NCBI GenBank assembly: GCA_913061155.1
Contig: CAJXSI010000003.1
Coordinates: 1,576 to 65,575, forward strand
Origin: an uncultured Alphaproteobacteria bacterium
GTDB lineage: Bacteria > Pseudomonadota > Alphaproteobacteria > UBA7879 > VGCX01
Direction: 5' to 3'
Length of the DNA stretch: 64,000 bases
In this document: piece by piece, positions 27,048 to 28,929 of the stretch
Position numbering within the stretch: the first letter of the stretch is position 1
Layout of the letters: every line of letters starts with the position of its first letter
Made by a program: the position numbers and the translations under genes
The notes under the pieces: model-generated
The model's input: the letters and a program-made list of their open reading frames with translations, nothing else
What the model was told of the DNA's origin: nothing
Database searches by the model: none

Positions 27048-28226
27048 ATGAAACTTAAATTCCTGATTTTTATACTAATTCTATTTTCTGCATCTGCTGA
27101 TTCTGCCATGCGTGAGGCAATAATACTTACTGAAAAAGCATTTGCCCGCACCGCACGTGTAGCAGTAAGAGGGATGGCAACAAAAGCGCATCATCCTTCT
27201 TCTGAATCTTGGGGGACTATTTCATGTGTTGCAGAGGCAATAGAGGCGCAAGAAACTGTTGTTAGCGGAACACAGGCCCTATTTAATCCGCTTGAAATGA
27301 AAGATAGGGATTATCACTTTGCCTTGCCAAACCATTTTGGGATTTGGTACCGGGGCGTTAATGATGGAAGATTCAATCTTACCCCAGGCATACAAAGGCT
27401 TGTAGACCCAAGTTTGCCTATTGATGATCAAATAAAGTTTCTTGAAGAAACACCAATGTTCAATGGATATTTACTAAAAAACCCTAAAGTCCATCATGAT
27501 TTTAACAACCCAGATCTTCACAGAAGTGTTGATAACATAATGTCTTGGTTAACTTTCATGCAGCATTATGGGTTTCCCACCCGTTTATTGGATTGGACAT
27601 CTAATATAGAAACAGCTTTATTTTTCGCTGCAAGCGGCAATACAGAAGGTAAAACCGGGAAATTACATGTTTTAAACGCTGTAAGACTTAATAACTATGT
27701 TCTTGGTGACAAAGGTTTTGGGGTCTGCCCCCAAGACCATCTTTCCGTATCTTTAAGGGCGGAATTATCTTTATCCCTCAATGCAGAAGATTTATTAAAC
27801 CGTAAAACAATTTTTGAACATGAATCTTATATTACCTATGTAAAAAAGGGCGGAAATCCAGCTGATTTTTTGGATGGTTTAGAAATGCCTATTGCTGTGG
27901 AGGCACGGCGTTACAACCCTAGAATTGTTAGCCAAGAAGGGTGTTTTACAATCCACGGGGGGAAAATATTACCAAAAAGCATGAAAACAACTTTGCCAAG
28001 GCCAAAAACTTTAGAGGAATTAAATGAGGAAGCGATAAGGGCAGGACACCCCCCTTTCCTAATTAGTTTCGATATCGAAAACCAAGAAAGAATTTTACGG
28101 GAACTAAAAGATGGTGGTATAACTGAAACCTCTTTATTGGGCCCCAAAGACGACGAAAGAACAAAAAAAATGGAAGCCCTAGCCCAGGATATTAAAAAAT
28201 ACTGGACACTGAAAAGGATCTTTTAA
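27048..28226 (+). CDS. secreted FRG-domain protein (PF08867-like)
   Basis: RBS GGAG 5 nt upstream, and signal peptide MKLKFLIFILILFSASADSA. FRG hallmark motifs are IWYRG...L.P...R and FMQHYGFPTRLLDWTSNIETALFFAA, with a C-terminal RIVSQEGCFTIHG. Confidence 0.6.
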   Translation: MKLKFLIFILILFSASADSAMREAIILTEKAFARTARVAVRGMATKAHHPSSESWGTISCVAEAIEAQETVVSGTQALFNPLEMKDRDYHFALPNHFGIWYRGVNDGRFNLTPGIQRLVDPSLPIDDQIKFLEETPMFNGYLLKNPKVHHDFNNPDLHRSVDNIMSWLTFMQHYGFPTRLLDWTSNIETALFFAASGNTEGKTGKLHVLNAVRLNNYVLGDKGFGVCPQDHLSVSLRAELSLSLNAEDLLNRKTIFEHESYITYVKKGGNPADFLDGLEMPIAVEARRYNPRIVSQEGCFTIHGGKILPKSMKTTLPRPKTLEELNEEAIRAGHPPFLISFDIENQERILRELKDGGITETSLLGPKDDERTKKMEALAQDIKKYWTLKRIF

Positions 28227-28233
28227 TATATTG

Positions 28234-28929
28234 ATGGAAAATAATGTCTATAAAGTAACGGTCAGGAAAGGTCTGGGTCCTGGAAATTGGCAAGATTTTC
28301 CAAAAGTTATTTTTGAAATCAGCCTTAATAACAAACGGTATAGGGGCGAATCTTTTTATGCCATCCTTAATTGGGCATGCACACGATTTAAATCTATTCA
28401 TATTATAGTTTGCGATACATTGCAGCGCCATAATATTTGTTTTAATCAAAATATTTCTGAATTTAACGCACGGCCCCTTGCCAAACAAAAAGGGGATCTA
28501 TGGCTACAAGAATCGCAAATTTATTTTGATAAACTTGGATTAAGTCCTGAAATAACCCGCTGGGATGATTGGTTGAATTATGATCCAGAACTTTACAATA
28601 GGTATGATTGTGACTTAAGAAACCTGTATAAAACGGACCCCGCGATTCAAAATGAAATCAACAAAATATGTAAGGCTGTTTGGGAAAGGCGCAAAAAGCA
28701 TGAAAATTTGGATGATGCCTTGGAAAATTCTTTTAAAAACCAGATTATTTTACCCTATTTTTTTGAAGAAACTGTATTAAGCGCCATCTTTCTGCCTATC
28801 ATAAAGGGTGTAAGTGCTTATCCAGGGTCATTACCCCAATTTTGGAACACCTTTATTGATGGAAAAGTTAATACATTAAATGGTTTTAAAGGACAAACTT
28901 TCATTAACTTAGATTTAAAAAGAAAATAA
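28234..28929 (+). CDS. tRNA-dependent cyclodipeptide synthase (CDPS) family protein
   Basis: The N-terminal pocket region EISLNNKRYRGESFYAILNWACTRFKSIHIIVCDT aligns with AlbC (GISAGNSYFS...LLQWAGQRFERTDVVYVDT) and YvmC ([30 protein letters not shown]). A Y-x3-E motif (PYFFEE) and a C-terminal AYP are also present. The protein is 231 aa. Confidence 0.6.
   Translation: MENNVYKVTVRKGLGPGNWQDFPKVIFEISLNNKRYRGESFYAILNWACTRFKSIHIIVCDTLQRHNICFNQNISEFNARPLAKQKGDLWLQESQIYFDKLGLSPEITRWDDWLNYDPELYNRYDCDLRNLYKTDPAIQNEINKICKAVWERRKKHENLDDALENSFKNQIILPYFFEETVLSAIFLPIIKGVSAYPGSLPQFWNTFIDGKVNTLNGFKGQTFINLDLKRK

Follow-up and report, generated by a model that had tools for sequence, protein, structure and literature searches.

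A conserved two-gene operon pairs a predicted exported FRG-domain protein with a divergent XYP-type cyclodipeptide synthase in an uncultured alphaproteobacterium

A 64,000-nucleotide stretch from an uncultured alphaproteobacterium (GenBank assembly GCA_913061155.1, contig CAJXSI010000003.1, positions 1,576 to 65,575; hereafter the window) was analyzed for two adjacent genes, the first of which (ORF1) encodes an FRG-domain protein and the second (ORF2) a cyclodipeptide synthase (CDPS). The locus was found to be a conserved, co-inherited two-gene operon and not a chance neighborhood. ORF2 is a real but divergent CDPS of the XYP type with an active site that is intact as judged by alignment and structural model, while ORF1 is a predicted member of the ADP-ribosyltransferase superfamily that begins with a putative export signal. 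Both families are known; what is new is their pairing, the apparently exported form of the FRG protein, and this clade of CDPSs. A literature search found no publication joining the FRG domain and a cyclodipeptide synthase, and FRG was not among the partners reported in the published surveys of CDPS neighborhoods that were consulted. An earlier note, prepared from the DNA sequence of the window, had suggested that the two genes could be a functional unit of a new kind, and this suggestion is strengthened by the conserved pairing and by the lack of any paper found with both families.

The pairing was followed across genomes by collecting relatives of the CDPS with their contigs (17 relatives from 5.8 billion proteins). 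Six verified contexts and a probable seventh (Table 1) have an FRG gene directly upstream of the CDPS gene and in the same orientation. The gammaproteobacterial locus L014 was found by a scan of one genome per species, and L088, from 'marine bacterium B5-7', was found by a search with the FRG protein of L014. The 228-residue product of the downstream gene of B5-7 matched TIGR04539 (E 1.9e-7) and has its catalytic residues intact. Next to the pair in this bacterium (L088 5001-10951) are genes for a PhdYeFM antitoxin and a GH18 chitinase, along with trbC, virB3, and virB4, with which a type IV secretion cluster begins. On the contig encoding another FRG protein (P0059), the downstream gene, of 245 residues, lies beside RelB/YafQ. 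The spacing of the FRG and CDPS genes varies: 7 nt separate them in the window, and they overlap in L009 (4 nt) and in the P0014 contig (22 nt). Two deep clades hold the pair, one of alphaproteobacterial type (alpha clade) and one gammaproteobacterial (gamma clade), and the identities of the FRG and CDPS proteins were found to track each other at r = 0.92 (8 pairs), a value that is descriptive only because the comparisons are not independent. At the loci examined, no other conserved tailoring, transport, or immunity gene was found beside the pair, and the pair turned up in none of the phages or plasmids of the collections searched. Chance adjacency was ruled out, since the gene order recurs in six verified, unrelated contexts and the two genes diverge in parallel. 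The co-occurrence that the earlier note had proposed to survey was found to recur across both clades.

The assignment of ORF2 was examined by profile, sequence, and structure. The protein scored 44.7 bits with TIGR04539 (E 1.1e-11), just under the cut-off of 45, and 22.2 bits with PF16715 (E 1.4e-4), under the cut-off of 27, both matches being statistically significant; the clade member from L010 clears TIGR04539 at 49.5 bits. When ORF2 was compared with the PDB by phmmer, only CDPSs were matched and the XYP type was on top, with Fdum-CDPS as the best match (5OCD, E 4.6e-14), followed by Rgry-CDPS (5MLP) and then Nbra-CDPS (5MLQ/9I5M). An AlphaFold model of ORF2, built from 18 homologs, had a mean predicted local distance difference test score (pLDDT) of 94.5. 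The best 44 matches of this model in the PDB by Foldseek were all CDPSs, with a template-modeling score (TM) of 0.81-0.83 to 5OCD, and were followed in the ranking by tyrosyl-tRNA synthetases at an E-value of about 2e-3. Residues Ser30, Tyr175, Glu178/Glu179, and Tyr196-Pro197 were found to be invariant in 18 close and 27 broader relatives. Of these, Ser30, Tyr175, Glu179, and Tyr196 are the equivalents of AlbC Ser37, Tyr178, Glu182, and Tyr202, respectively, while Pro197 is the proline of the XYP signature. The segment A-Y196-P197-G of ORF2 places Tyr-Pro at AlbC positions 202-203, as in the XYP subfamily (the NYH subfamily has His), and the Asn at AlbC position 40 is permitted by the X of XYP. 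A CDPS of XYP type had been proposed in the earlier note from a hand alignment to known enzymes; the PYFFEE and AYP segments on which it relied are present, and the profile E-values, the CDPS fold of the model (TM up to 0.83), and the invariant Ser/Tyr/Glu/Tyr set all agree with it. A mis-called gene or pseudo-CDPS was ruled out by the intact fold and catalytic residues.

The clade to which ORF2 belongs was further delimited by a phmmer search of 1.84 billion representative sequences. This search recovered 750 relatives at E ≤ 1e-3, of which only seven clusters were at E ≤ 1e-30; the clade is small and sharply bounded, since these seven members are followed by a fall in score from 184 to 107 bits. 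Around the catalytic Ser, at window positions 28315-28332 (CDPS residues 28-33), the alpha clade has the sequence F-E-[IV]-S-L-[DN]-N, with an invariant Glu two residues before the Ser and an Asn at AlbC position 40. In place of this segment, the other XYP enzymes, including the partners in the gamma clade, have P-I-S-V-G-Q. Judging from the alignment, the residues that flank the Ser in the alpha clade may point to an unusual aminoacyl pocket. Among solved enzymes the closest is Fdum-CDPS, whose product is cyclo(Gly-Gly) (PMC12945691); this specificity is not transferable to ORF2 because the two proteins are only about 22% identical.

ORF1 was matched by the FRG family profile PF08867 at 63.5 bits (cut-off 25; E 3.7e-17; residues 99-200), and the WYRG and QHYGFPTRLLDWT motifs were found in the protein. 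Ten residues that are invariant in 38 FRG homologs are all kept in ORF1, namely R102, G103, E134, Q172, H173, T178, R179, D182, R292, and Q296. The FRG call made in the earlier note is therefore upheld; of the two Pfam families it had named, PF08867 scored above its cut-off and the CDPS family PF16715 below. The PADLOC profiles for PDC-S15 matched residues 97-383 at up to E 5.8e-24 and stretch the FRG homology to about residues 363-383. The invariant Arg102 lies on the first core strand, and the invariant Gln296 is at the likely [QE]-x-E position, where the following residue varies (E, Q, D, or S). No solved structure was detectable from the ORF1 sequence, and the FRG model had no significant match in the PDB by Foldseek. 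The Aravind group assigned Frg to the ADP-ribosyltransferase superfamily, as one of its clades, and predicted it to be an antiviral effector, possibly an NADase (PMC9503650; NAD, nicotinamide adenine dinucleotide), and a survey of Legionella repeats the placement among ADP-ribosyltransferase-like families (PMC12522546). The description of FRG in the earlier note, as a family without established function and with no known defense role, is to be qualified by this placement and by the PADLOC candidate, both of which are predictions. PDC-S15 itself is a candidate single-gene defense system only, and the neighbors of ORF1 are housekeeping genes and not a defense island. The FRG domain is widespread on plasmids, in prophages, and in defense islands, and to our knowledge biochemical activity has been demonstrated for none of its members. 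Two close FRG relatives (P0023 and P0024, one 94-99% identical to the protein of the window) seem to be truncated by frameshifts at about 60-80% of their length; this shortening could reflect pseudogenization in sister strains or assembly error.

The N-terminal region was found to distinguish the CDPS-paired FRG proteins from the rest of the family. By inspection, ORF1 begins with a charged MKLK segment, followed by a 9-residue hydrophobic core and then by S-A-S-A with D as the next residue, a pattern that agrees with a Sec-type signal in its positive n-region, its hydrophobic h-region (7-15 residues), and its small residues at positions -3 and -1. Of 11 alpha-clade partners examined, 10 have a hydrophobic core, and 9 of these reach a Kyte-Doolittle 11-residue mean of at least 2.5; values were 2.5-3.3 in alpha-clade partners compared with at most 1.0 in generic FRG proteins. 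From this sequence pattern, which bears out the signal peptide proposed in the earlier note, we infer that the FRG protein of the alpha clade is exported by Sec. The signal is followed by an extension (residues 18-50) that was modeled by AlphaFold2 as a low-confidence helix (pLDDT about 40-60). Generic FRG proteins have 26-33 residues ahead of [WY]RG, without a hydrophobic core, and an extension or signal was seen in CDPS-paired FRG proteins only. In the gamma clade, the full-length partners have 80-139 residues before [WY]RG; of five such extensions, four open with 50 residues that are basic, abundant in Ser/Thr, and almost devoid of acidic residues. These gamma-clade extensions look like N-terminal secretion signals or the presequences that direct proteins to organelles. 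When the extensions of the two clades are aligned by eye, they share a short motif, [RK]-x-[FML]-[ST]-T, with instances that include RGMATK, RGFSTK, KTFSTL, and NRFFSTV (window 27099-27197; L014 4717-5050; P0059-P0063).

With regard to gene layout, the coordinates of the two same-strand open reading frames, their 7-nt spacing, and their position between typA and the yqeY-dnaG-rpoD block were confirmed as given in the earlier note. Upstream of the pair, typA lies on the opposite strand; yqeY, dnaG, and rpoD follow downstream on the same strand as the pair, and hemY is also among the housekeeping neighbors. ORF1 could also start at an in-frame TTG (26922); the ATG at 27048 is favored because GGAG lies 6 nt upstream and because distant homologs start at the ATG position. 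The G+C fraction of the pair (0.33-0.40) was no different from that of the surroundings, and neither flanking repeats, nor adjacent tRNA genes, nor insertion sequence (IS) or other mobile-element genes were found at the pair. The absence of repeats, of an adjacent tRNA or IS, and of a G+C shift leaves a recent mobile insertion unsupported, and the insertion into a conserved backbone that the earlier note had described was not demonstrated. Promoter and terminator scans at the locus gave scores no better than those of shuffled sequence.

Table 1. Features of the FRG-CDPS locus in the window and the contexts in which the gene pair was found.
Feature	Location	Strand	Basis or remark
FRG-domain protein gene (ORF1), 392 residues from ATG, predicted ADP-ribosyltransferase-superfamily enzyme	27048-28226	+	open reading frame listing
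Putative Shine-Dalgarno sequence, GGAG	27038-27041	+	6 nt before FRG ATG; read from sequence
Predicted Sec-type signal sequence, residues 1-17 (MKLK, FLIFILILF, SASA, then D)	27048-27098	+	read by inspection
N-terminal extension specific to CDPS-paired FRG proteins, residues 18-50, motif R-G-M-A-T-K	27099-27197	+	
FRG Pfam core, residues 99-200, with WYR102G and Q172-H-Y-G-F-P-T-R179-L-L-D182-W	27342-27647	+	Pfam and alignment
XYP-type CDPS gene (ORF2), 231 residues	28234-28929	+	TIGR04539, PDB, Foldseek; starts 7 nt past ORF1 stop
Catalytic Ser30 codon (AlbC Ser37)	28321-28323	+	invariant in 27 XYP relatives; aligns with I-S motif of solved CDPSs
Tyr175-Glu179 codons, Y-F-F-E-E (AlbC Tyr178/Glu182)	28756-28770	+	Y175, E178, E179 invariant; aligns with Rgry-CDPS YFLEE
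Tyr196-Pro197 codons, Y-P of XYP (AlbC Tyr202 position)	28819-28824	+	invariant; aligns with Rgry-CDPS T-Y-P-G
Context typA / pair / yqeY	window, L001, L003-5, L022-24		syntenic
Context pnp / pair / lpdA			
Context dapB / pair / Fic	L009		
Context mraZ / pair / LysR	L010		
Context in a gammaproteobacterial metagenome-assembled genome	L014		FRG directly upstream of CDPS; CDPS about 30% identical to that of the window
Context in 'marine bacterium B5-7' (Gammaproteobacteria)	L088		FRG, then 228-residue CDPS

Both families were also surveyed where they occur apart. Among the 82 CDPS loci collected, FRG was found only in the two paired clades, and it was absent upstream of 50 other XYP CDPS loci having more than 1.5 kb of upstream sequence. 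A general link of FRG to XYP CDPSs was therefore rejected, on the basis of these 50 unpaired loci with room for an FRG gene and of the other neighbors found for the close FRG relatives P0033, P0029, and P0031. The first of these, which is the FRG protein closest to the gamma-clade partners, is followed by a 369-residue non-CDPS gene and then by a MafB19-like deaminase beside IS genes (L083 1693-3452), which is a toxin-like neighborhood. Standalone FRG genes were present on 320 plasmid records, mostly conjugative. At two loci (L086 5001-8740 and L087 1839-5578) a standalone FRG gene is directly followed by genes of the SIR2_2 and DUF87 (HerA-like ATPase) families. Both families are NAD+-linked defense genes, and this arrangement suggests that FRG can be a third component beside SIR2-HerA. 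In phage P2_2H1 (NC_049386.1 30979-32343; L089 320-1684), a 454-residue FRG-domain protein is encoded near the right end, past the replication genes of this P2-like phage; the corresponding end of P2-like phages is variable and harbors defense genes. Several other XYP CDPS loci were found to have two tandem CDPS genes or an open reading frame of two-domain length (L016 763-2204, L032 4237-5699, L037 4267-5699, L033 1061-4239, and L030 4734-6395). In addition, the 33-kb plasmid of Candidatus Endohaliclona renieramycinifaciens, an intracellular symbiont of sponges, was found to carry a CDPS-like gene (26% identity, hypothetical by annotation; MK748462-MK748465, at about 4660-5210).

Comparison with the closest known systems places ORF2 near the solved XYP CDPSs (Fdum 5OCD, Rgry 5MLP, and Nbra 5MLQ), with which it shares the fold (TM 0.78-0.83), the catalytic Ser/Tyr/Glu/Tyr set, the Y-P signature, the size, and the single-domain architecture. 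Like the XYP CDPSs of Legionellales and Rickettsiella, it occurs in a bacterium without a classical secondary-metabolite cluster. It differs from these enzymes, however, in that (i) it is only 20-23% identical to them by structure-based alignment and falls just under the curated profile cut-offs, and (ii) its clade is always accompanied by an FRG gene, which was seen at none of 50 other XYP loci whose upstream sequence was long enough. Standalone FRG proteins (PF08867; PDC-S15) have the same domain, and all of the family-invariant residues are in ORF1, yet they are about 250-320 residues in length, have no extension or signal, and are found on conjugative plasmids, at prophage ends, and by SIR2-HerA, whereas ORF1 has 392 residues with a Sec-type signal and linker and is encoded among housekeeping genes, coupled to a CDPS. 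The known CDPS clusters, such as those of albonoursin (AlbA/B oxidase), mycocyclosin (CYP121), pulcherriminic acid (CypX), and bicyclomycin (2-oxoglutarate oxygenases), likewise have a CDPS in an operon with a conserved partner enzyme; here the partner is a predicted exported ADP-ribosyltransferase-like protein instead of an oxidase, P450, methyltransferase, prenyltransferase, or ligase. The lack of a usual tailoring gene had been remarked on in the earlier note, and oxidase, P450, and methyltransferase genes are indeed all absent beside the pair. Further close known systems are the Sec-exported ADP-ribosylating toxins of the R-S-E type (cholera toxin A, heat-labile enterotoxin A, pertussis S1, and PltA/ArtA).

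The setting of the source organism was considered from the window and from relatives: one metagenome contig is 100% identical, and a scaffold from Tara Oceans is 90% identical. Most of the rest of the window is occupied by housekeeping genes (ftsK, recG, hemC, hemY, glyQS, fabI, and folD). The exception is a 533-residue protein encoded at 17018-18616 on the minus strand, which consists nearly entirely of leucine-rich repeats (LRR_6 and LRR_4) of the ribonuclease-inhibitor type, typical of eukaryotes. Such LRR proteins are common in intracellular or host-associated bacteria, and this one is the sole hint of lifestyle in the window. Host association, which the earlier note had called probable, is possible; the evidence for it is thin and includes the LRR protein and the Tara Oceans relatives.

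In the mechanism that we propose, the CDPS would take two aminoacyl-tRNAs in the cytoplasm and load the first aminoacyl group on Ser30, giving a dipeptidyl-enzyme by a ping-pong acyl-enzyme route, after which Tyr175, Glu179, and Tyr196 would cyclize the dipeptidyl-enzyme to a 2,5-diketopiperazine, as expected from knowledge of the family. Knowledge of the family likewise leads us to expect that the FRG protein uses NAD+ or a related nucleotide, and the alpha-clade form, with its Sec signal at the start of the extension, would act outside the cytoplasm of the producer. ADP-ribosyltransferase-fold enzymes can modify small molecules, as in the case of Arr. Together the two proteins would act as a single outward-directed module through which the producer interacts with a host or competitor, and in which the small, membrane-permeant cyclodipeptide is the acceptor substrate or the controlling ligand of the FRG protein. 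We favor this module tentatively, as a quite possible reading that stops short of being probable. Its coupling step is one that we infer because genes kept next to a CDPS normally act on the CDPS product (PMC2922099; PMC5767969). A chemically coupled system of an undescribed kind that yields an NAD+-derived, ADP-ribosylated (nucleotide-linked) diketopiperazine from an ADP-ribosyltransferase-fold tailoring enzyme, or that constitutes a cyclodipeptide-gated ADP-ribosyltransferase-like toxin or NADase, is unlikely. Several points weigh against the proposed module: (i) the gamma-clade partners have no hydrophobic signal, so export may not be general; (ii) NAD+ is scarce in the normal periplasm, and to modify a dipeptide directly there would be chemically awkward, except in a bacterium that inhabits host cytosol or if the protein acts in a target cell; (iii) the canonical catalytic Glu of ADP-ribosyltransferases is, by alignment, not conserved in the FRG protein, since the residue after Q296 varies; (iv) standalone FRG genes are found in defense-type contexts (SIR2-HerA, the P2-like prophage end, and conjugative plasmids), which argues for an effector directed at macromolecules or NAD+ over small-molecule tailoring; and (v) the link between the FRG protein and the CDPS is, at present, one between genes.

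Several of the same observations could be accounted for by a toxin and a protective enzyme, with the FRG protein as an exported or delivered ADP-ribosyltransferase-like toxin and the downstream CDPS shielding the producer, either enzymatically, for example by clearing damaged aminoacyl-tRNA, or by means of a cyclodipeptide that would sit in the nicotinamide site of the toxin until export. As in polymorphic-toxin loci, a toxin-like gene precedes one for a small cytoplasmic protein, to which it is tightly coupled at overlapping stop and start codons; moreover, the FRG family occurs in conflict contexts, the gamma-clade pairs adjoin toxin-antitoxin genes and a type IV secretion cluster, the FRG and CDPS proteins evolve at similar rates, and enzymatic antidotes to ADP-ribosyltransferase toxins exist (DarG and Tri1). 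However, the full catalytic set for forming and cyclizing a dipeptide is invariant, which would be needless for a mere binder or deacylase, and an intact enzymatic active site is atypical of immunity proteins; only the gene order fits a toxin-immunity pair. We know of no immunity protein with a CDPS fold, toxins exported by Sec cross the membrane unfolded and usually have no need of cytoplasmic immunity, and the marker domains of secretion systems (Rhs, PAAR, LXG, etc.) were absent from the FRG protein by profile search. On balance, we consider a toxin with its protective enzyme somewhat unlikely. That the CDPS instead modifies the FRG protein, by transferring an aminoacyl or dipeptidyl group from tRNA onto the conserved N-terminal extension in a tRNA-dependent protein modification and not in the synthesis of free cyclodipeptide, would fit the restriction of this extension to CDPS-paired FRG proteins, the Ser/Thr-containing [RK]-x-[FML]-[ST]-T motif of both clades, and the tight translational coupling of the genes. 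Nonetheless, the cyclization residue Tyr196 is conserved, the motif is short and was aligned across clades by eye only, and we know of no CDPS that modifies a protein; this transfer is very improbable.

The pair could also encode two independent but co-regulated effectors, a secreted FRG protein and a diffusible cyclodipeptide that act on different host targets with no biochemical link between them. Tailoring-free CDPSs in intracellular bacteria (Legionella, Rickettsiella, and chlamydiae) have been proposed as host manipulators (PMC2922099), FRG is among the ADP-ribosyltransferase-like families of Legionella (PMC12522546), and the window encodes the eukaryote-like LRR protein. Yet the strict adjacency, the translational coupling, and the parallel divergence over two deep clades and six verified contexts exceed what co-regulation usually maintains, and we regard independent effectors as quite unlikely. 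A role in anti-phage defense or abortive infection, in which the FRG protein would deplete NAD+ as the effector while the CDPS would serve as a sensor or regulator that reports the aminoacyl-tRNA pool via its cyclodipeptide, is suggested by the PDC-S15 match (to E 5.8e-24), by the prediction of FRG as an antiviral effector or NADase (PMC9503650), by the SIR2-HerA genes that adjoin FRG in L086, and by the FRG gene within the variable end of a P2-like phage. Counter to this role, the neighbors in the window and in most alpha-clade loci are core housekeeping genes with no defense island, the signal sequence would take the effector out of the infected cytoplasm, and the pair was in neither the phage nor the plasmid collection; we therefore find anti-phage defense decidedly unlikely.

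Overall, the operon locks FRG to an enzyme of well-understood chemistry, which provides a first experimental handle on the role of FRG and the hypothesis that a cyclodipeptide is its substrate or ligand. For the CDPS field, the gain is a small, bounded XYP clade that is missed by the curated profiles, with a partner class that is unprecedented and a substrate pocket that is possibly unusual. If gating by a cyclodipeptide proves true, it would tie the activity of the effector to the aminoacyl-tRNA pool. For the biology of symbionts and pathogens, the pair is proposed to be a compact module, composed of a secreted ADP-ribosyltransferase-like protein and a diffusible dipeptide, that has moved between Alpha- and Gammaproteobacteria.

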